Source of the DNA: a virus
Lineage: Duplodnaviria; Caudoviricetes
DNA length: 64,000 nucleotides
IMG/VR virus record: IMGVR_UViG_3300033463_000004
Coordinates: 160,001-224,000 of that record
Strand: one strand, 5' to 3'
Made by a program: the position numbers and the translations under genes. Below the pieces are notes generated by a model. The model was not told the DNA's origin, did no database searches, and saw nothing but the letters and a program-made list of their open reading frames with translations. Shown one piece after another: positions 7,479-28,293 of the stretch (the first letter of the stretch is position 1; each line of letters opens with the position of its first letter).

Positions 7479-10400
7479 TTATTTAATTTGGATTGGTTCA
7501 ACATTTGGAAGTGTAGAATGAATCCACATTCCGTCAAATGTATCACTGACAATGATTCTTGTACCAGGACGAATCATTGGAATGATTTGTTTCGTTTTTG
7601 TAATCTCATCAATCTTTCCAGTCTTGGAAGTTGATATGTACAATGTGAAACACTCATCCGACAATCCAGTTGTATATATCTCATAACCATCTTCTACTTT
7701 TTGTACATGAAGAATTTGATTCTTTCCAATTGTATCAATATAAGCAGACAGATGTTTGAAAGGTGTGATACCATTCAAACCTTCCAGTTTCCAAGTTTTA
7801 TCGTATGCTTTGAGAAGTTGTTCATTTTTTATTTCTTGTAAGCCAAGATTTGTAGATGTTAAATTGAACAACGATACGCTATTGATCGTTGGAATATTGT
7901 GTAATTGATTATATGATGTAATTTCTGGACTCTGAATGTATGACATAATATCTGTTTCATAATCGTGATTATTTGCAACACGAATATCATCATACAGATA
8001 TGTGTCAAGCGGTGTCTTTTGTGATTGATTGAATATAAATCCAATGGATTGATCGACAATGTCTGCACGATGTTTCAATACGTCGAGATATGATGTATAA
8101 ATATTTCCATCGAAATCAACATATGCATTTCCAATTCGATTGATTGCATTAATTGAAATGTCATCAACCAATTCAACAACATCAAGGTTCTTCAATGATG
8201 TCATATTTCTCAATTGGAAAGATGTTGGTGACAATATTATGATTTGTGATGGGTCAGAAACATATCGTCCATTTACCCAGAACTCATAACGATCACGAGA
8301 TAATGGTGTTGGAATCAACCCGGTTAAATCAACAACACCATCAGACGGAATCTTTTGTGTTGCATATCGACAAATTCCAATATGATTAGAACGAATTGTA
8401 TCAACATTTGTATTCGTTGTCAAATCGATTGTCAAACGTTTATTGGAGGTATTTGTCAATACATTACCGATTGGATATTTGATATCATTTTCTTTGTCAT
8501 AATAATACACATAAAGATCATCTTCATTTGTATTATCTTCTGAAACATCATGGAATGTATCAAGTTGATATAAGTTCCCAAGTTCCAAATAAAGGAATTG
8601 AGATAAATCAACACCTGAATGTGGTAACAATGCAACTTCATTCGGAATCAACCGGTATGCCAACAAAGATATTCCTTGTTCTGATATGTCATGAAGTTTA
8701 ATCCAATCTCCGTTATTTGCATCAGTTGTTGTCGTTGACGACACAGATACAATATATACACCACCGATGATTGGATGACTTTCATCAGGTATAATTGTGC
8801 ACACATAATCATGTGTATCATTTGTCTGAATTGTTGATTGTTGGATTTGAATACCTTCATCTGTTGTAATTGCTGTGAACATAACACTGGATGCAGTTTT
8901 ATCAAATGATGAAAATTCATCATCATTGACAGATATCAATGTGATAACATGTCCTGCTTCCATATTCTCTGCAGCATGCATAACCGACACATTATATGAT
9001 ACATCAATTATTTTTTGATCAATAGAAGTGTCAATCACCGGTTTCTTTATATATACATCAAAATCTTGATATGTGTATGTGTTGTTTTCTGTGTAGAATC
9101 TCAAATCACCAAAACGAATCGGAGAACCGGTTGTATAGTAACCACTTCTTGAAGGTCTATCGAATGTAAAACCATTTACAGGACCGAATGATTCTGGCAA
9201 AGGTTTTAATTTGGAACTGCGATAGATTTCAGACTCGTCATAGTGTTTTCTGATACGGATAGATTCGTATTGGTCATTTTGTTTATTTGGATCATCTGCA
9301 TATACAGATATCACAGGTTGGAATCGTGCCACACAATTCATATCATGTAATTCAATTTCACTGTAAACATCGGATGATTCATATACGAAATAAATCAATA
9401 AACGTTTTGATCTGAAATACGTATCATTGAATATAATCGTCATAGAAGTCATCACATTATCAGTGTCAGAATCATTACAATCATTGAGATGTATACCATT
9501 TTCAACTGTTGTTTCAATATAATATGCAGACGGATCGATCCATTCTTTGTGTTCCCAATCATATAACAACACTTGCATTTTATCAGAATACAATAAATCC
9601 ATCACATATGGATGGAATGTTCTTGATAAATGCGCACGTCCATTATTGATATACACTAATGCATCATCATATGCACGAACATTATACCAAGTTGTCGGAG
9701 ATTCTAATTGTGCTTCATATTCATCCATACGAAGTCTGTGGGCATACCAATAATTCTTTTTCAGTTCACATTCTTCAATTTGAATTCTGATAGAACGTTT
9801 TTCTTCTTCGGTTGTTGCTTCCGCCATTTGTTCATATAATGCATAAATTCTTGCATCATATTCACGAACTTTTGTCATTGCCAATATTGATTGTTGTTGG
9901 AATACTTCTTTTTCTTTATCCCATATTTGATGATCGTCAGGTTCTGTACGCAACACTGTATACAATTCTGGAAGCGTATATGTATTGAAATTATGATTGA
10001 TCATATTCAATTCAATGAATGCATCATCTGTCATAATATCCGCAGATCCAATATATACAAAATGATGATGTAAATTATCGTCAACATGGAATCGATTTGG
10101 AACACCATCTTCACCAAACATTTCTGCGAGCTTTTCATAGATGTCATCGGACTTTGATTGAACAGACGGTGGATCTCCTGGGATGGGATCAGATACATCA
10201 ATTGTATAATCGGAAAATTCATCCAAGAAATTCCGAATATTGTCATCAGCAATATTACAATCAATATTTGTTGTAAGATATTTGTGGATTACATCAATAT
10301 CATTTGTTTCCGTCCATTTTGTATGCTGCATATCGACTTTTGCTTCGATAAATCCGCGTTCGATGGAATGATCGATTTTTGTAATGATGATTGGGAAAAT

Positions 10401-18700: not shown

Positions 18701-19926
18701 TCTGTTACAGAACTCAACGAATTCACATTTAAGTCTTTTAATTGAATTTGACCAATATTGGAACGAAGTTGATATTCACGCGCAGATGTTGTTGTACGTA
18801 ATACAGAATCTTCATTCGTTGGTGTACGCATTGTCGCAATTGATTTTGATGCTTGATTAATCAATTGATTTTCAACGGGATTATCACCGCCAACTTCTAG
18901 ATCTGCTGCAATACGTTTATAATTTGAAACGGTTGTTTCGTTTGGAGTGATACGATGTAACAATTGTGTGTTAATATCAAATGTCTTTGCACGATAGATA
19001 CCATCTTTTTCACTACTTCCGGCAGCAATCCCAAACTTATCTTTGATTGCCTGAATCGATGATGATAACTTAGAACGTGTCCCTGATCCACCATTTGTCG
19101 GGGTTGTATCTTGTCCATTATCGTTTTCTGATGTGTTTGCATTAATAGTATCCATCATTTCATCCAACGATTCGTCTTCGTCAATCGATGACGTTGTTCT
19201 TGGACCATTAAATGGTGAACCAATTGAATGACACATTGTATTCAGATTCTCAACATCACTTTCTGATATTGACCTGAGATCCATCTTATAATCAGCAAGG
19301 GTTGATCTGAAAATAACTGTGATATCTTGTGATGTTGGTTTACCAGAACCAGAACGATATGAACCAATCAATCCATTAATCAAATCTGATTTAACCGTTT
19401 CTTCTGAATCATAAATCTTATACCGATCCGTATTTACAATCAGAATCTTTTTCTTTGCACCGGTAAACTGCTGCATCAATGTTGACATCATTTGCGGTGC
19501 ATTTCGTTCAATATATTCTGCAGATAATGATTTCAATGATTGATTTAAATAACGCATCACATCAGACATTGAAATATATACGTCATCCTTAGACAATTTA
19601 TTGATCGGAGGTTTTACAACTTGAATGGCAGGAATCAATTTCTGTTTCATTAAATAATCAACTTTTTTCCGATATTCACTTTCGGAAATAGAATACCGTA
19701 CATTCACGGGTCCTATTTTACTATTTAAAGAATACGGAATTATAATTTTTTTAATTACACGAGGTGGCGGCATTTTCTTAATCAATTCAAGATCATATTC
19801 ATACGAACCTGATACCAAGAAAACCGCCACGTCTTCCGTATCTTTTGGAAGCGTATAAATCGAGCGTGATGCTTGAAAATTCTTTCCAGTGGAAAGATCA
19901 GTTGCTTCCTGATATAAAAAAGACAT
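15721..19926 (-). CDS. multisubunit RNA polymerase beta-like subunit, probably virion RNAP
   Basis: motifs STPNSANVGMVRQLT, TYEDAGIM, VGDEIEIGDPL, IGDK...KQVI, SILKRMIPS; ~400-aa N-terminal extension, late promoter and YQEA motif; start MSFLYQEA after AAGGAG. Confidence 0.85.
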   Translation of the reverse strand: MSFLYQEATDLSTGKNFQASRSIYTLPKDTEDVAVFLVSGSYEYDLELIKKMPPPRVIKKIIIPYSLNSKIGPVNVRYSISESEYRKKVDYLMKQKLIPAIQVVKPPINKLSKDDVYISMSDVMRYLNQSLKSLSAEYIERNAPQMMSTLMQQFTGAKKKILIVNTDRYKIYDSEETVKSDLINGLIGSYRSGSGKPTSQDITVIFRSTLADYKMDLRSISESDVENLNTMCHSIGSPFNGPRTTSSIDEDESLDEMMDTINANTSENDNGQDTTPTNGGSGTRSKLSSSIQAIKDKFGIAAGSSEKDGIYRAKTFDINTQLLHRITPNETTVSNYKRIAADLEVGGDNPVENQLINQASKSIATMRTPTNEDSVLRTTTSAREYQLRSNIGQIQLKDLNVNSLSSVTDIPLPEPIKPAKITTLNPGAQRGTSFPKIAQAYEENMMDQDIISTFMTLQKLPEGFNVTKIDVTDISTPISLMHNWRVHLKNKRSGSQSHIDIVVPVMNNGRFLYNGSYYNIGKQDFPIPILKINKKKVILTTNYNKITVSRYDTKSLVDITMMLKAVASKNDSKGKNPYVQYGSSMVTNNRFVSTIEYDEYARRWYMFENKDANCKIIFNRDQCQRDFGFVTVGENEFCCGMVNQVPIVLNTETGLDRHGKSITEIITQYLPSDIVQLYTKGKPNKLSMYADIKIGVLIPLGVAIAAWEGMPSLLKRSGAQYKYVAPRENVPGFLKIPFKDRTLAIQNTVLNQLIFNGFYRINTRQYNSTDFETTIMDDNSVFVDIFNQLFFKQYSQRTTFITYYHFFVDAITEDVCQHYHVPNNICDMLIYAAHMLADNNFTSENNSSLYRIRSSEIIPAMIHYHLAVAISKYNNAVGSKTRDNKLVFNRMAIMNELMATETVSTSSALNPMIELHEDETITKKGYGGVNQAKAYTEAKRSFDESMIGKMAMSTPNSANVGMVRQLTVDPKVSSVRGYTVADNPSETEFNDLQLASFSELLTPGTVTHDDAIRTAIATSQTGHILPVDDAQPVLVSNGIDEIAASYLSDEFAVTAKENGQVLDIADGYMIVQYDSKQKQAIPVNSRYSFNPGSGFYVDNKLVSNFQKGDKFVKNDILAYHTKFFSKDSSGMVRMNVGPLAKVAFCGTYATYEDAGIMTNKMSKRLGTHVTMCQASKLEATDDIEKIVQVGDEIEIGDPLIVFGLGDTGDKAVDSFLNAFRDAGSSLDTAKRVVRSKHAGVVKDIRIYTNRPLDRLSPSLFEIIDKHFKDNIQKRRILDKYDKNDSVMKMGTLYSAPTQPLSGQTIKGIRCDVLVEIYIEHSDDVSIGDKCVVYAASKQVISEIVPEGLEPYGETDPDEEISMFVSAGSILKRMIPSVVLTAAANKVLINLKRQIAKTWNGQ

Positions 19927-19957
19927 ATTATCATCTCCTTGAAAGGTGGGTTTACAA

Positions 19958-20155
19958 ATGAATTCCAAACATACCTATTACCACACTTGCCCATATTGTG
20001 GTGCAAATCTTGATCCTAATGAATCATGTGACTGTCAGTATGAAGTTACAGAAAAGTCTGAGGAAAGTAAAGTGAATAATTCAGATGTATTCTCAAACAA
20101 ACGATCTTCGTTTTGTGACAATGGAAGATATCACAGGAATGAAGGAAGAACTTAA
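19958..20155 (+). CDS. small Cys-rich (CPxCGANLDPxExCDC) protein
   Basis: zinc-ribbon-like motif; GAAAGGTGG RBS. Confidence 0.6.
   Translation: MNSKHTYYHTCPYCGANLDPNESCDCQYEVTEKSEESKVNNSDVFSNKRSSFCDNGRYHRNEGRT
20045..20059 (-). promoter_or_regulatory. putative late promoter for the RNAP gene, inside the opposite ORF
   Basis: AGACTTTTCTGTAAC matches the 1881 and 14469 motifs. Confidence 0.5.
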
Positions 20156-22053: not shown

Positions 22054-23712
22054 TTAATAACATTGGCTGGTGAAATCTGCTTTAGTGAAATCCTTCTTTT
22101 TCAAAGATTCTTTCGTGATAAACAGATAAGCATTGCCATTGTCACCCCAACCGATGAAATCGTCGCTCGTCAATTGAAGCAACGTGACACTGTTATTTTT
22201 GTTATATCTGGAATCTCTGATGTCGTACTGGATGAATGCTGGATATCCACCGATTTTGTCTGCTCCACATGGATAGTCCCAACGCGGGAATGCATTTGGA
22301 TACTTAAACACCAATTGAAAAACATCTTCTGCAGTATGTGTTTTGGTTGTATCGTATTCATTCCATTTCTTAGCAAAGAGCTCTTCATAGTTATTGATCT
22401 CATCGCTGGTAGAAGGATTCAATGATTCTTTCATAGTTTTGAATCCGACATGACGCAAGACCGGTGAACCTTCAAACCACGGATCTTCCAAATAATCGGG
22501 TCTGTTATATACATTATCAGAAACCTGGTCAGCAATCGAAGGTTTTTTTGTATCTGAATAATACAAGACCTTCGATTCTTGTCCACCTTTTCTAAGGGGT
22601 CCCAACCATAATTGCAGAATACCACTTGTAGGAAGATCCGGTATCGCTCTAGGAACATCTGCGAGATTGATTTGGATTATGAATCTCATCTCTTTACCGT
22701 CGGATGTTTTTGGGATCACTGGAGCATATACAGGTTTTCCATACGCGCAGGAATCGTCAGGTTTCGGATTTTGTAAAGCATGGAAATCTGTTAATACAAC
22801 AACATCTGTTTGTGTTTCTGACTTGATTTCATCAAGAATCTTTTTGAACAGAGTTCTTTCGATTGGGAAATCGGATGGGATTGATTCTTTCTTATCAGAA
22901 GTTTTTGGTTGTGGTTTGGCTCCAGGGAATTTTTTATTGGCATTTTCTTTTGCCTTTTCCCACATCTTACTGAAGAATCCTTCTTGAATCATACCATTGT
23001 CATTGATGTAACGTTTATACATTGACTTGACATATTCTTCGAAGGTTCCATTAAATTCTTTTTCACCCTTTGTGTCGTAAACATATACTGAGTTTTTATA
23101 GTATAACAAAGCATCATCGTGTTGTATTACACCAAACACGAGTTCGCCATCCGTATACATTTCGTCATCATCAGATTTTGTATACCACGCGACAGTCTCA
23201 GCATCTGCGAAGAAATAATACGTTTCGTAACCATCTTCATCTTTTACTTCGAATTCGCTGGCTTTTACAAGTGCTTGATATTCCTTTGATTTGAATACCT
23301 TAACAAACTCAGCTGGAAGTTTTCTACCGAGCCACGTTTCAATGTACTCGACATCATCAGGTTCAGGTCTCGTAAGAACTTTTTCAAGTTCGGCGAATGT
23401 TGATGCAAGCTCATGTGTCTTTGTACCATTTCTGAGCATATAAGACTTTGACGCAATATCATAATAGATAGAAGCGTCATTAGAACATTCGAACAGAGGA
23501 ATTTGTGTTCGAATAATGTTCATTTTAAGCAACATCTTAGCTTGCCAGATACGGGTGACAATATAGATAGTATTGTCTATTTTGACAAACTTTCCACGCC
23601 ATCCATATCCATTTCTTGCGTTGTTAACAAGAAACTTTTTAAGATCGTCTGGTAATGGTCCTGACATTTTTTCAATTTTTGAGACAGTCTTATTCGCCAT
23701 CAACTGGCTCAA
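22054..23712 (-). CDS. two SMI1/KNR4 (SUKH)-like domains plus DUF1963/YwqG domain; probably the -1 frame continuation of 23709-26108
   Basis: IE..LG.KLP.EF and LPDDLKKFL SUKH starts; FIIQINL.D.P..LP.SGILQ, KIGGYP.F.Q.D.R, LLQL.SD..WGD.G.AY.FI YwqG motifs. Confidence 0.7.
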   Translation of the reverse strand: MSQLMANKTVSKIEKMSGPLPDDLKKFLVNNARNGYGWRGKFVKIDNTIYIVTRIWQAKMLLKMNIIRTQIPLFECSNDASIYYDIASKSYMLRNGTKTHELASTFAELEKVLTRPEPDDVEYIETWLGRKLPAEFVKVFKSKEYQALVKASEFEVKDEDGYETYYFFADAETVAWYTKSDDDEMYTDGELVFGVIQHDDALLYYKNSVYVYDTKGEKEFNGTFEEYVKSMYKRYINDNGMIQEGFFSKMWEKAKENANKKFPGAKPQPKTSDKKESIPSDFPIERTLFKKILDEIKSETQTDVVVLTDFHALQNPKPDDSCAYGKPVYAPVIPKTSDGKEMRFIIQINLADVPRAIPDLPTSGILQLWLGPLRKGGQESKVLYYSDTKKPSIADQVSDNVYNRPDYLEDPWFEGSPVLRHVGFKTMKESLNPSTSDEINNYEELFAKKWNEYDTTKTHTAEDVFQLVFKYPNAFPRWDYPCGADKIGGYPAFIQYDIRDSRYNKNNSVTLLQLTSDDFIGWGDNGNAYLFITKESLKKKDFTKADFTSQCY

Positions 23713-26108
23713 ATTTGAAAAAAACCTTCTTGAACATTTGATGTCAACTTGCTTTTGAATTTAGACCATGATTTCGCAATGACAACTTTTTCCGAATTCA
23801 TCTTGTCAAGGAAGAATACATCATTCGATTTGAGATCAAAGAATAACGTAAATTGATCACCCGATTCAATAGATTCAGCTGTGCCAATTTGGATTTTCGT
23901 ACAGGGATACTTTTCGAACGTTGCGATATCCTCATCAACAGAAGTCTGTTTTCCGTTGTTAATCACAGCAATCATATGTCTTGCGTCTTCATCATAATAT
24001 TCAGACCAGTCAGCAAGATGTATGTCGACAATCAAATCACTAATCAAATCACTAATACCGGATGCAGAATATTTAAATTCCCCATCACAGTTACTATTGC
24101 CTTGTTCAGATGCTTTCACATCATCCCTGAAATCAGCAGGCATGTGATCTTCGGCATATTTATAAATAGCCGATCTCAGTCTACTTCTTTCATCAACTGA
24201 TTCTTGAACAGGTTTACCCATCTTTGCTTCAACCATCTTCAGAACACCGGTTGCTTCTGAAACAAATGCTTGAATCATTCTCTTGACAGTCATGATACTT
24301 CCCTGATCGATATCTGCACGAAGCATCTTAATCAGATCAGACAGACAATGATTCAGTTTTAAGAGTTGATTGCGTTCAGTTTCATTAAAACTTTTTGTCA
24401 TTTTAGAAGCATGATGGACTACACGATTGAGCTTCCATCCTTCTTTCTTGAATTCAGAACAAATTTGCTCAATCTCCATATCGGAGCTATTCAATATGCC
24501 GAGCGCTTTTCTGAGGTGAATATCCAGCTCCTTATTAATATTACCTCTTGTCAGAAAAAAAGCTTCTTGCTCCACATTATCAACCGGCGGAACATCGGAA
24601 TCAACAGGTGGTTGAACATTTGTATCAGAACTCTGTAAGAATTCTTTCAGTTTTTCCATTGGCATGCTCTTCATCTTTTCTTGTGCTTGTGCAAGAATTT
24701 CATCCATTGACATATTATCAAAGTCAACATCAGAAGTTTCTGCTGGCATGTCATCAACTGCAGGAGCAGCTTCATCTCCACCGCCGAGTTCTGCATTCAA
24801 CTCATCTTCGGTCGGAGCTTCGTCTCCACCCAGATCTGCATCAACACCATCGATATTTACATCGTTCTCAGCATTTGCATCATTCTGGGTTTCATCTGCA
24901 ACCTTCTCTGCGATTTGGTCAGATACATTATTCGTATCGACGACTTCTTTGTTCTCACCATCTGCAGGAGTTTCGGTTCCAGTATCACCTTCAACAGGTG
25001 CTTCGGTTCCTTCTGCAGGCGGAGCAGCTGTTGTATCATCACCAGCAGGTTGTTCCATACCATCTGCTGGAGGAGCATCAAATGATACTGCTGGAGCATC
25101 AGGATTTGCAGCAGGTGCTTCATCAGGATTACCGAAATCAATTGCTTCTTGAACAAACCGACTCGGTGCACGATAACCTGATGCGATCATTGCAGCTTCC
25201 TGCTGAATTGCAACGCTCTTTGTCATTGTGTAAATATGAGGAATATCCATTGTTGTTACAGTGGATTCACCACCTTTAATAGGTTGACTCCATTCAACAA
25301 ATGACTTTTCACCGGTACTGTCGATTTCAAACTCAACGACAACTGCCAATTTGTCAGCTGGCTCTTTTGGAACCGTAATACCGACAGGAGTGATCTTATC
25401 CCACAATGCATCAGAAGTCTGTGCGTCAACCTTTGGACCGAACTGAGTGAATGCAGCCTCCTGAATTGCTTCAATGCCATTTTGACGGAATGCGATAACA
25501 CTGTCAAGTTGCTTCTTTAGAATCGTACGATTCTGTGCAGCCTCGAAGTTAACATCGAGCTTAACAGAATAATCTTTTCCATACAATGTACCACATTCCA
25601 TGACAATCTTCGAAGGAACACGATCATCATGAAGTTCAACTCGATCAAAACCGAACAAACCTTCCTGAATGCAGTAATTTTTGTATGCTGCAAACTGCTC
25701 TCTGGCAATTCCCTCAACACGATTTGCAAATTCCTCGTCAGATTCGCGTTGATACTGCATCGTAGTATTATACGCTTCCTGATAGAAATCATTCATTGTT
25801 TTCATTCTGGTGTAATCTGTATCAGACTCCTGAACATTTGCATCACCAGGAACATTCGTGACACGACCGTCAAGAAGATTCATCTCAACAGCAGTGATTT
25901 CAATATCATCTTCCAAAGGAATATCAATCTTAGTGAACGGACGAGAGCTACCTGCTTCAGTTCCTTCGACACTCAGATCATCCAGCTCTTGGAAGAGATG
26001 CGCACATTCCAGAATTGCTTCATTCATTTGTGCTTCTTCATTTACAGCTTCAAAAGCTTTTGCTTCTTCTTGGCGAGCTTTAAGCTGCTGGCTGATGTAA
26101 TCAAGCAT
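23709..26108 (-). CDS. acidic internal head protein/polyprotein with many xQE(A/S/G) motifs and a C-terminal SUKH-like domain
   Basis: VQES, YQEA, IQEG, IQEA, QQEA, VQEA, EQEA, VQES, VQEG; C-terminal IG..GD.F.LFFD..V..D..IAKSWSKF. Confidence 0.65.
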   Translation of the reverse strand: MLDYISQQLKARQEEAKAFEAVNEEAQMNEAILECAHLFQELDDLSVEGTEAGSSRPFTKIDIPLEDDIEITAVEMNLLDGRVTNVPGDANVQESDTDYTRMKTMNDFYQEAYNTTMQYQRESDEEFANRVEGIAREQFAAYKNYCIQEGLFGFDRVELHDDRVPSKIVMECGTLYGKDYSVKLDVNFEAAQNRTILKKQLDSVIAFRQNGIEAIQEAAFTQFGPKVDAQTSDALWDKITPVGITVPKEPADKLAVVVEFEIDSTGEKSFVEWSQPIKGGESTVTTMDIPHIYTMTKSVAIQQEAAMIASGYRAPSRFVQEAIDFGNPDEAPAANPDAPAVSFDAPPADGMEQPAGDDTTAAPPAEGTEAPVEGDTGTETPADGENKEVVDTNNVSDQIAEKVADETQNDANAENDVNIDGVDADLGGDEAPTEDELNAELGGGDEAAPAVDDMPAETSDVDFDNMSMDEILAQAQEKMKSMPMEKLKEFLQSSDTNVQPPVDSDVPPVDNVEQEAFFLTRGNINKELDIHLRKALGILNSSDMEIEQICSEFKKEGWKLNRVVHHASKMTKSFNETERNQLLKLNHCLSDLIKMLRADIDQGSIMTVKRMIQAFVSEATGVLKMVEAKMGKPVQESVDERSRLRSAIYKYAEDHMPADFRDDVKASEQGNSNCDGEFKYSASGISDLISDLIVDIHLADWSEYYDEDARHMIAVINNGKQTSVDEDIATFEKYPCTKIQIGTAESIESGDQFTLFFDLKSNDVFFLDKMNSEKVVIAKSWSKFKSKLTSNVQEGFFQI

Positions 26109-26355: not shown

Positions 26356-28293
26356 ATGAATAATATGAATCCGTATGATGAATATTTGGACAGAGTTTTC
26401 AAAGTATATATGCAGATGCATCCGGATCGAAATCCGGATAAAGTAAAGCAACATATACAAGAAATGACTGACCGGAATTTTAAAGATATCCCATGCCAAT
26501 TGAATAATAACATTACACATGAAACAATCAACACGAGTGTTTGTCAAACATTTAATTGGATTGAACAACGTTCGCCGATTATTTCAGGTAATGGTACATT
26601 TTTCATGCAACATGAAGAATACCTTGCACCGATTGTGGTCATGCTTGAAACATTGCAGGCTGAACGTAAAGGTGTCAAGAAAGAAATGTACAAGCACGAC
26701 AAAAAATCGGTTGAATATGCTCTGTTGAATACAGAGCAAGGATCGATTAAGGTCATTATGAATGCTGACTACGGCGGGTCTGGAACGACGTTGTCACCAT
26801 TCTATTCTTGCTATATCCCGCCTGCAACGACGGGCTCCGCTAAGGTTATGACCACAACCTTAATCTGCTGTTTGGAAATGCTCTCTGGTAATCAAGATAA
26901 ATGGGCAAAGATTCAAAATATCAATGGTCTATACGATTTCATTCATATTGTATTAACTGATACAGAAGAGCGTCCAAATGCAATTAAGGATAAATTTGAT
27001 ATTGATGAAATATGCGATGCTTTGCTGAGTTTCGTTCATAATTATTCATATGAAGATGTCAAATATCTGAAAGCATTTCTTTTCACGCTAACAGACGAGC
27101 AGCGAACAAGATTGCGGTTAGCATTCCAAGTGAAATATGTTTTAAATGAATATTTGCAAACAGAAATCGATGTGGTAATGGAATATTTGAAATCACATCG
27201 TATAAACTGGAATAATATCTCAAAAGAAACATTACAGATATCTGGATTTGGTACCGAGATACCACCAGAAATCAAACCACAAATGGATCGAATCAGTCAG
27301 GTTGTATTGGATAATTGTTGTTATCCATTTATATTAAATGATAATGAAGTTCGTGCAGCAGAAATGCAACGAGTTATTGTATGTATTACAGATACGGATT
27401 CGTTGATGGTTCATTTTGCAAATTATCTGGACGAGTTCCATGCACATGTTGAGAACTTCCGTGATAGTTGCATTGTTGCATCTGCCTTGGGTATGCGATT
27501 ATTCGTTGAAAATATTATTCCAAAAATGGTACGATATCTGACGATTGGTTGTAATATTAAAGATGAATACTATCGAAAGAAGTTTGTGTTCAAAAATGAA
27601 TTTGGTTTCTTGGCACAAGCATTAATTGCAAAGAAAATGTATGCCTCATCTATGTTTGTGCAAGAGGGTTCTCCGCGTGATATTCATGATATTGCCGTAT
27701 CGGGTTTGTCATTTAAGAAACGTGATTCCGCAGAATTCTTGGAAGACATTATGGTGCATCTTTATGATAAATACATTCTGACACCAGATCGTGTATCCGT
27801 TGAAGGAATCATGGATGAATATTATGCATTACGTGACAAATTGAAAGGAGAACTCACGTACAATCCAAAGTATTATCAGGTATTAAGTTTGAAGGATGTA
27901 TCGGCATATGATCCGACAAAACGACTTCCTGCTCAAATGCTTGGTGCGTTGGTATGGAATGAAATCATGCCTGATGAACAGTTACTTCCGATGGATCGTG
28001 TCATTGTTGTTCGTTTATCATTTGAGAAAATGCAACAGCATGCCCCGAACAATCAACGAATTGCAACGGTGTTAAGATTGTCTTTGAATAACAACGAAAA
28101 GATGAAAGATACACCTTTCATCTGTCTGCCAGAACATTATCATGAAATTCCAGACTGGGTTTCATTAATCATTGATGAAGAAGGCATGGTAGATAAGTTG
28201 TTAACGCCTTTCAAACAACTGTTAAGTTTGTTTGATATTATGGTCGCAGAGACCAAAGCTGGAGCAGTATCATCTAGAATGATCTGCTTATAA
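26356..28293 (+). CDS. family B DNA polymerase, polymerase subunit of a split enzyme
   Basis: SIKVIMNADYGG (motif B), TDTDS (motif C), KKMYA; no exonuclease or DxxSLYPS motif; start may be 26365. Confidence 0.85.
   Translation: MNNMNPYDEYLDRVFKVYMQMHPDRNPDKVKQHIQEMTDRNFKDIPCQLNNNITHETINTSVCQTFNWIEQRSPIISGNGTFFMQHEEYLAPIVVMLETLQAERKGVKKEMYKHDKKSVEYALLNTEQGSIKVIMNADYGGSGTTLSPFYSCYIPPATTGSAKVMTTTLICCLEMLSGNQDKWAKIQNINGLYDFIHIVLTDTEERPNAIKDKFDIDEICDALLSFVHNYSYEDVKYLKAFLFTLTDEQRTRLRLAFQVKYVLNEYLQTEIDVVMEYLKSHRINWNNISKETLQISGFGTEIPPEIKPQMDRISQVVLDNCCYPFILNDNEVRAAEMQRVIVCITDTDSLMVHFANYLDEFHAHVENFRDSCIVASALGMRLFVENIIPKMVRYLTIGCNIKDEYYRKKFVFKNEFGFLAQALIAKKMYASSMFVQEGSPRDIHDIAVSGLSFKKRDSAEFLEDIMVHLYDKYILTPDRVSVEGIMDEYYALRDKLKGELTYNPKYYQVLSLKDVSAYDPTKRLPAQMLGALVWNEIMPDEQLLPMDRVIVVRLSFEKMQQHAPNNQRIATVLRLSLNNNEKMKDTPFICLPEHYHEIPDWVSLIIDEEGMVDKLLTPFKQLLSLFDIMVAETKAGAVSSRMICL

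Follow-up and report, generated by a model that had tools for sequence, protein, structure and literature searches.

A jumbo phage genome carries, on the minus strand at 22054-26108 of the stretch analysed here (hereafter the window: 64,000 nucleotides (nt), corresponding to bases 160001-224000 of an IMG/VR virus record with a length of 262,694 bp and a completeness of 98%), two adjoining open reading frames (ORFs), A and B. With a probability of about one in two, A and B encode a cargo polyprotein that is packaged in the head and processed by a protease, the SUKH-SUKH-TYPP part of which would be reached by -1 recoding. The proposal builds on the identity of the domains in B, the modular architecture of the protein family, the enrichment of a Phi-Q-E motif (Phi being V, I, L, M, F, Y or W), a fixed frame break between A and B, and purifying selection on B. 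A preliminary description of the region had seen a single head polyprotein with three SUKH-like domains and a DUF1963 domain, separated by QE sites and serving as a packaged immunity cassette. Its observations are confirmed in part and its interpretation is partly supported. The locus consists of two ORFs rather than one, and this overlooked break changes how the cargo must be made.

23709-26108, minus strand: ORF A, carrier core and first cargo module, 799 amino acids (aa); ATG at 26108 preceded by AAAGGAG, TGA at 23709-23711, C-terminus ..SNVQEGFFQI
22054-23700, minus strand: ORF B, 548 aa, starting with MANKTVSK, in the -1 frame relative to A

Putative cargo domains

The putative cargo begins in the C-terminal part of A and continues through B. 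In the motifs below, a slash marks the candidate cut.

23727-24200, minus strand: cargo module 1, A 637-794, maybe SUKH-like, with homologues in the cargo slot of the related proteins P0004, P0031 and P0025
23368-23700, minus strand: SUKH domain, B 1-111, assigned by fold match
22981-23367, minus strand: SUKH domain, B 112-240, assigned by fold match, with a sub-threshold Pfam match
22969-22989, minus strand: IQE/GFFS border, B 238-244, where the SUKH tandem meets the linker to DUF1963, kept in P0001, P0002 and P0006
22060-22716, minus strand: DUF1963 domain of the YwqG family (TYPP superfamily), B 329-547

The assignment of B 329-547 to DUF1963/YwqG is firm at the sequence level, and the preliminary description was right to call this domain clear. 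Pfam PF09234 matches it at E = 3.9e-29, with a score of 103 bits where the cutoff is 23, over profile positions 15-216 of 216, and Bacillus subtilis YwqG (PDB 1PV5) is matched in sequence at E = 1.2e-14. Alignment to 1PV5 brings out the TYPP motifs, namely GGxP (kIGGYPaFiQ) and the conserved Gln (tLLQLtSDD). A protein-binding or chaperone-like role has been proposed for the TYPP superfamily, which includes DUF1963 (Burroughs and Aravind 2014, PMC4275035). Among ten long bacterial DUF1963 proteins examined with Pfam, the partner domains were Sel1, BRCT, LRR, DUF6892, DUF6630 and DUF4259, and SUKH was absent; a common bacterial SUKH-DUF1963 fusion is therefore not supported by this small sample.

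Both domains in the N-terminal part of B have the SUKH alpha+beta fold in predicted structures. An AlphaFold 2 (AF2) model of B 1-240, made with a ten-sequence alignment, reached a predicted local distance difference test (pLDDT) score of 88 and a predicted template modelling score of 0.84. When it was compared with 48,161 PDB chains (VIA-wide search), 12 chains were found at Z of at least 5, and the top eight were all SUKH proteins. For B 1-111, the best VIA match was the SMI1/KNR4 protein BF1740 (3d5p; Z 9.2, root-mean-square deviation 2.6, 99 residues aligned), followed by Syd (3ffv, Z 8.7) and the RhsPI immunity protein (8bd1_B, Z 8.6). Foldseek gave probabilities of 0.97-0.99 for this domain, and its three best PDB rows agree with VIA; no Pfam match was obtained for B 1-111. 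The second domain, B 112-240, matched 2icg (Z 8.5), 2pag (8.0), YobK (2prv, 7.8), FBXO3 (7.2) and Knr4 (6.7) with 103-117 residues aligned. Pfam SMI1_KNR4 was found there below threshold (E = 1.3e-3; 19.7 bits, the cutoff being 25.4), and BLAST homologues of this domain (E ~1e-21) exceed the Pfam cutoffs or come close to them (P0009, above the cutoff, at 28.3 bits; P0040, SUKH_6, at 26.7 bits). Domains 2 and 3 of the three proposed SUKH-like domains are thus confirmed by fold.

Module 1, which had been proposed as the first of them, is unproven as a SUKH domain. It has no Pfam match and no PDB sequence match, and the sole positive result is an ESM Atlas best cluster, the SMI1/KNR4 family, at 0.91, below the recognition threshold. 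The AF2 prediction consists of helices, four strands and a helix, about half of it at low confidence (pLDDT 27-50 at residues 667-722, 73-80 at 730-790). With hhalign, module 1 reached a probability of at most 12% against other domains, and shallow profiles of modules 1, 2 and 3 reached at most 28%, over short stretches, against the strong SUKH domains of relatives.

Proposed carrier core

Upstream of module 1, ORF A starts with an N-terminal helix, which is followed by an alpha/beta domain, a disordered tract rich in acidic residues and a four-helix bundle of basic character.

25179-25808, minus strand: conserved alpha/beta core domain, A 101-310, AF2 pLDDT 75-92
24564-25145, minus strand: disordered acidic tract, A 322-515, 27% D+E and 3% K+R, pLDDT below 50
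24213-24539, minus strand: four-helix bundle, A 524-632, isoelectric point 9.2, AF2 pLDDT 79-92, VIA Z ~11 to generic helical bundles
24198-24212, minus strand: PVQE/S border between core and cargo, A 633-637, kept as KPVQE across the whole family

The acidic region noted earlier from the letters is thus present, and it is flanked by the candidate cut sites FVQE/A and VEQE/A. The module borders quoted in the preliminary description also exist, as PVQES at A 633-637, VQEGFF at A 792-797 and IQEGFFS at B 238-244. The alpha/beta core domain gave no fold match in PDB, BFVD or the ESM Atlas. Likewise, the 799-aa model of A returned only generic four-helix-bundle matches from Foldseek against PDB and from VIA-wide, and nothing meaningful from BFVD (template modelling score ~0.1). 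This model is too long, and in part too disordered, to bear on the fold of module 1.

Family architecture and module shuffling

ORF A belongs to a family with more than 334 relatives at E of at most 1e-3. Those listed have 496-1384 aa, and many lie on metagenomic phage contigs of 150-280 kb. The family is modular, with a common core up to the conserved KPVQE and variable C-terminal modules behind it. After the core there may be nothing, helical domains, SMI1_KNR4, SUKH_6, DUF6985 or DUF1963; one of the last four occupies the cargo slot in about 30 of the 120 relatives listed. Module borders all read [VI]QE[GA]FF.

The modules of A and B recur in other combinations. By local BLAST, P0004 (1282 aa) contains modules 1, 2 and 3 contiguously in one frame, and P0005/L001 has an unrelated module followed by modules 2-3. 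In P0006 the linker and DUF1963 are fused in frame (83-93% identity), and in P0002 DUF1963 stands directly behind the core. P0001 is a full-length homologue of B (549 aa, 83% identity), and P0125 is a 246-aa protein consisting of the SUKH tandem only. A scan of IMG/VR with B alone gave no match. Compared across the more than 334 relatives, the domain arrays show a swappable cargo slot behind a conserved core, which supports the preliminary interpretation indirectly. The relatives carry these modules in a single frame.

Phi-Q-E motif as candidate head-protease site

The motif [VILMFYW]QE[AGS] occurs 42 times in 232 ORFs of this genome, against 11 +/- 3 in residue shuffles (about fourfold enrichment), and ORF A holds seven of the 42 sites. 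In the AF2 model of A, four QE sites (at 321, 515, 636 and 794) are located in linkers, each with pLDDT below 50. The earlier claim that QE sites separate the domains stands for the module borders, but not for the two SUKH domains of B. No QE site lies between SUKH 2 and SUKH 3, so this pair would stay joined as a tandem of ~29 kDa.

Elsewhere in the genome, the motif is found in proteins of the head. The major head protein (PHROG match) has FMVQE/S at residue 121, and the head maturation protease (PHROG matches; positions 121693-122580 of the whole genome, G000) has CYVQE/A at residue 20, near its N-terminus. In other phages, two further carriers are linked to DUF1963 by this motif. The first, a 58-aa N-terminal module with DIFQE/G at its end, shows homology to the N-terminal parts of three proteins encoded in this genome, one of them next to the protease gene. 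The second is homologous to a protein encoded inside the head gene block. The ~58-aa module looks like a portable capsid-targeting propeptide. Altogether, the distribution of the motif is the pattern expected for capsid-targeted cargo, which is suggestive of such a role and not proof of it. The T4 gp21 protease family (Pfam PF03420) was also searched for and gave no match in this genome; control genomes were equally silent, hence this search is uninformative, and the protease was found by PHROGs.

Several further proteins with the motif have been observed. The beta subunit of the virion RNA polymerase (1415 aa, N-terminus at window 19906-19968, minus strand) has FLYQE/A at residue 21, and if the motif is a protease site the packaged subunit would lose a short propeptide. 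The ~58-aa N-terminal module, ending in [DE][IV]FQE/G, is located in the whole genome (G000) at 120098-121177 (minus), 132202-133605 (plus) and 231073-232299 (minus), and it is fused directly to DUF1963 in P0129 and P0130 of other phages. Just past the end of the window, a 1550-aa protein (L005:246-4898, minus strand, equal to G000 225246-229898) contains a GNAT acetyltransferase domain and three Phi-QE-[AGS] sites, KPVQE/S, DIQE/G and LIQE/A. It may be a second packaged, processed and enzyme-carrying polyprotein.

Frame break between ORFs A and B

The two ORFs are separated by a frame break next to a run of seven T.

23718-23724, minus strand: junction T7 run, read in frame A as the heptamer U_UUU_UUU; slippage by -1 would give ..QEGFF-SNLSQLMANK..
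23678-23713, minus strand: bulged hairpin of 6+5 bp, starting 4 nt past the junction T7 and enclosing the A stop and the B ATG
22097-23667, strand not assigned: stretch of 1571 bp deleted in two strains with 8-nt microhomology, a loss of almost the whole of ORF B

The junction reads CAA GAA GGT TTT TTT CAA ATT TGA GCC AGT TG ATG, a perfect X_XXY_YYZ heptamer in the zero frame near the end of ORF A, and the reading frame of B is open from 23760. A -1 slip on T_TTT_TTT would produce ..NVQEGFF-SNLSQLMANKTVSKIEKMSG.. and restore the QEGFFS border of the family, and the predicted junction peptide of the A-B fusion is GFFSNLSQLMANK. In L001, the in-frame sequence is ..TVQEGFFSKIGDAMAGRTVSKLEKMTG.. 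where the window would read ..NVQEGFF/SNLSQLMANKTVSKIEKMSG.. after the slip. The IMG/VR relatives, 18 of 18, have a single ORF up to the conserved downstream gene, which indicates that the split is derived, most simply by loss of one T from T8.

The break is fixed in its lineage. The exact 799-aa A protein was found on four contigs, and contigs from four further runs of four studies (X5, X6, X7 and X9) have no indel across the junction; other indels within the A frame of these contigs measure 3 and 12 nt. A homopolymer sequencing error was considered and rejected, as five independent assemblies agree. On/off phase variation was likewise not observed, no in-frame T8 variant of the lineage being present among the assemblies or in the protein database, and the closest protein longer than 799 aa among the matches listed is 68% identical.

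Behind the break, B is under purifying selection, as judged from sequence comparison. Among the 39 differences listed between B and the X5/X6 strains, 27 are synonymous and 12 non-synonymous; third codon positions account for 27 of the 39 (p = 5e-6). Across 12-19% nucleotide divergence in the compared segments, B has no stop and no uncompensated frameshift, and a -1/+1 indel pair 6 nt apart restores its frame. The deletion of B is carried by X7 and X9 (two runs, two studies), which are ~96-99% identical in the compared stretches of ORF A; the X9 contig joins 22096 to 23668, and the X7 contigs end at those positions. There is no Shine-Dalgarno motif before the B ATG. A strong AAGGAG-type motif precedes 141 of 197 ORFs (72%; ORFs of at least 100 aa, whole genome), ORF A among them.

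A second T7 run inside the core

A second T7 run with the same phase as the junction T7 lies inside the core, and the T7 runs of the gene all sit on QE[AG]FF.

24555-24561, minus strand: conserved in-frame T7, GCT TTT TTT, on QE/AFF, a candidate -1 slip site
24513-24547, minus strand: 11-bp stem-loop, starting 7 nt past the core T7 and kept in six phages

Six phages with 45-67% protein identity keep GCT TTT TTT CTG ACG CGA GGT AAT at this site; in relatives the sites are located at L001 7581-7630, at L002 7620-7669 and at the equivalent site of L007, L008 and L009. Synonymous-codon identity peaks at the core T7 (0.87-0.90 against a mean of 0.56). In all six phages, a -1 slip would lead to SD[AKE]R and then a stop, with a product of ~520 aa. 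The cells of the 11-bp stem are 100% paired, with one compensatory change. Together, the core T7 and its hairpin look like a conserved -1 frameshift signal for a truncated product, and the conservation of this signal raises the prior for use of the junction T7. In L008, at ~7906-7930, GGT TTT TTT GAC is present at the core/cargo border (PVQEGFFDG), where a -1 slip meets TGA at once; a slip there would give a cargo-free core from a cargo-bearing gene.

Proposed mechanism and alternatives

Packaging, cleavage, frameshifting, the target of the cargo and any immunity function are inferred. The protein would enter the prohead by means of the conserved core of A; there, cleavage behind Phi-Q-E in every linker by the prohead protease would free module 1, the SUKH tandem and a YwqG/TYPP domain of ~35 kDa. 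The freed domains would exit the head with the DNA and bind effectors of the host or of competitors, for example toxin domains that are normally neutralised by SUKH immunity proteins. With respect to expression, an ancestral single ORF would have lost one T, and B would since be reached only through a -1 shift at U_UUU_UUU, either by ribosomal frameshifting or by polymerase slippage. Most ribosomes would stop two codons further on and yield A alone, and a minority would yield a 1351-aa A-B fusion, in a ratio resembling that of Gag and Gag-Pol. A further-reaching version, possible though doubtful, extends this to a clade of gut jumbo phages in which one gene would give three products by U7 slippage at QE/[AG]FF (part of the scaffold as a truncated protein, the core in full, and a form laden with cargo), and in which the virion would carry a polyimmunity kit. 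In that case, the rapidly shuffled array of SUKH, DUF6985 and TYPP domains would be released by the head protease and, once injected, would pre-empt abortive-infection effectors or toxins delivered by neighbours.

Several results weigh against the packaged, recoded polyprotein. No toxin domain or gene was found adjoining A and B, DUF1963 has no documented immunity role, and the comparative study of the TYPP superfamily reports no tie to immunity loci (PMC4275035); the immunity function is in this respect weaker than had been stated in the preliminary description. No homology of A to a known internal head protein was found, with no PHROG match and no BFVD fold match. No match to A or B was obtained in 50,697 phage records by blastn and tblastn, and a profile of the A family found no homologue in the cultured phages UFV_DC4, Goe21, LPJP1 or phiR1-37, with the L001 genome recovered as positive control. 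The recoding signals are themselves modest. The junction hairpin (-10 kcal/mol, z -0.8) is weak alone and energetically ordinary, the core hairpin is thermodynamically ordinary as well (z -0.4), and covariation in its stem rests on one compensatory pair, a level reached in 84 of 500 shuffles. Moreover, the frame break is restricted to one shallow lineage, the 18 wider relatives needing no recoding, and the 8 nt between the A stop and the B ATG would permit coupled re-initiation. The divergence of B could stem partly from recombination with in-frame relatives and not from evolution after the break. Finally, the deletion of B in X7 and X9 implies that the cargo is dispensable in some settings, which fits the loss of a gene no longer needed.

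These points leave room for other explanations of B. It may be a separate gene, translated by re-initiation just past the A TGA into a free, cytoplasmic and unpackaged SUKH-SUKH-TYPP protein active during infection, with A alone as the head protein. The short intercistronic distance, the Met shared as start by B and P0001, the purifying selection on B and the tandem-only P0125, which suggests that standalone forms may occur elsewhere, are all compatible with this. We nevertheless consider it unlikely, since B lacks the Shine-Dalgarno motif that most ORFs of the genome have, its Met is ancestral and internal in in-frame relatives (..GDAMAGR..), the -1 frame is open and homologous from the T7 on, and B retains IQE/GFFS, which would be meaningful only within the prohead. 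The least probable of the explanations is that B is a recently inactivated remnant, severed from A by a one-base homopolymer deletion, silent and being lost. A change from T8 to T7 is a typical homopolymer indel, the break is limited to one shallow lineage, and the 1571-bp deletion in X7/X9 is not a multiple of three; against this stand the intactness of B across the divergence given above, its excess of synonymous and third-position differences, and the indel pair that mends its frame.

The role of A as a head protein can also be questioned. The A family might not be structural, with Phi-QE-[GA]FF acting as a structural linker or a recombination joint in a late cytoplasmic protein of polyimmunity type. 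This would agree with the lack of homology to known virion proteins among the matches found, with the motif in proteins unlikely to be in the virion, such as the DNA polymerase (FVQEGS), and with the position of the gene back to back with a replication gene. It appears rather improbable in view of the motif in the protease and, in the major capsid protein, at the position where a propeptide is expected, its concentration in a subset of proteins, and the acidic disordered tract with multiple sites, which resembles scaffold and internal head proteins. The codons of QEGFF also vary (GGT TTC TTC, GGA TTC TTC, GGT TTT TTT), which points to selection on the peptide and not on a DNA joint.

Comparison with known systems

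A few anti-defence proteins are known to be injected by phages, examples being T4 IPI* and P1 Dar. The T4 internal proteins and Alt enter the prohead by a short capsid-targeting sequence that gp21 cuts after (L/I)-x-E, and IPI* then blocks a host restriction nuclease. The proposed likeness to A and B lies in head packaging, cutting by a prohead protease after Glu, injection to disarm the host, and separable carrier and cargo. Packaging of Alt has been described (PMC5512222). T4 uses a 10-aa tag, whereas the putative carrier here is a core of ~640 aa with an array of binding domains and Phi-Q-E-[AGS] sites, known from sequence alone. In phage phiKZ, inner-body and head proteins are reportedly processed by the gp175 protease at S/A/G-x-E. 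phiKZ is likewise a jumbo phage with a virion RNA polymerase, and it has many head proteins cut after Glu, propeptides that are removed, and paralogous internal proteins. However, no sequence or fold similarity connects the two systems, the P2 residue here is Gln, and the nearest cultured relatives of the present phage belong to the AR9/PBS1/S6 group.

For the frame break, the closest parallels are Gag/Gag-Pol of retroviruses and the phage -1 products T7 capsid 10A/10B and tail chaperones G/GT. As in these systems, the upstream ORF has a slippery heptamer close to its end, and the extended minor product would be incorporated through the shared N-terminus and then cut. In contrast, frameshifting here is only predicted, and the arrangement is young, confined to one lineage and derived from an in-frame ancestor.

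The cargo domains have their own parallels. The likeness of the TYPP domain to YwqG (1PV5) consists of the significant sequence match, GGxP and the conserved Gln. Bacterial YwqG proteins are standalone or fused to Sel1, LRR, BRCT and other binding modules, and PMC4275035 describes no fusion of TYPP with a phage carrier or with SUKH. Polyimmunity proteins of polymorphic toxin systems (Zhang et al. 2012, PMC3482391) also combine several SUKH and unrelated immunity-type domains in one polypeptide, in arrays that vary greatly between close relatives. They are bacterial, cytoplasmic and located in immunity loci, whereas the array here stands on a carrier of phage structural type, has borders at protease-type sites and lacks a nearby toxin gene. 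Polyvalent proteins injected by phages and conjugative elements, for which processing by peptidases has been proposed (Iyer et al. 2017, PMC5512222), are similar in being multidomain proteins that enter with the invading DNA and serve in the early phase of the conflict with the host. Their repertoire, however, is mostly enzymatic (methylases, helicases, ARTs, peptidases), and SUKH or DUF1963 is not mentioned in PMC5512222. SUKH or DUF1963 on a phage head carrier appears in neither PMC3482391 nor PMC5512222. No report of SUKH-type immunity domains as virion cargo was found in the searchable literature, and nothing relevant was found there for SUKH in jumbo phages or DUF1963 in phages.

With a fixed carrier, a fixed cut-site motif, a swappable slot and hundreds of members, the family would constitute a catalogue of candidate counter-defence binders, and its carrier/cargo layout would lend itself naturally to filling capsids with foreign proteins. 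Whether recoding sets the stoichiometry of the cargo is directly testable on the fixed -1 break and on the conserved internal T7 with its hairpin. As the deletion variants show, cargo comes and goes within short periods, in line with an arms race.

Source genome and neighbouring genes

The source is a jumbo phage of ~263 kb from the cattle gut which, by sequence, is distantly related to the AR9/PBS1/S6 group with virion RNA polymerase. Its DNA is present in bovine gut metagenome runs. A and B are neighboured by genes for DNA polymerase B, a conserved 257-aa phage protein and the virion RNA polymerase beta subunit. The latter is ~30% identical to its counterparts in Staphylococcus phages S6, MarsHill and UFV_DC4, Bacillus phage Goe21, Listeria phage LPJP1 and Yersinia phage phiR1-37. 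Together with the frequency of strong Shine-Dalgarno motifs (72%), the infection of Staphylococcus, Bacillus and Listeria by the nearest cultured relatives points to a Bacillota host in the rumen. The family-B DNA polymerase gene (645 aa, window 26356-28293, plus strand) is divergent in orientation from ORF A. Its product has partial profile matches, to positions 76-191 of 453 in Pfam DNA_pol_B and to positions 390-702 of 710 in PHROG, and the family-B polymerase may be split into separate genes in this phage.

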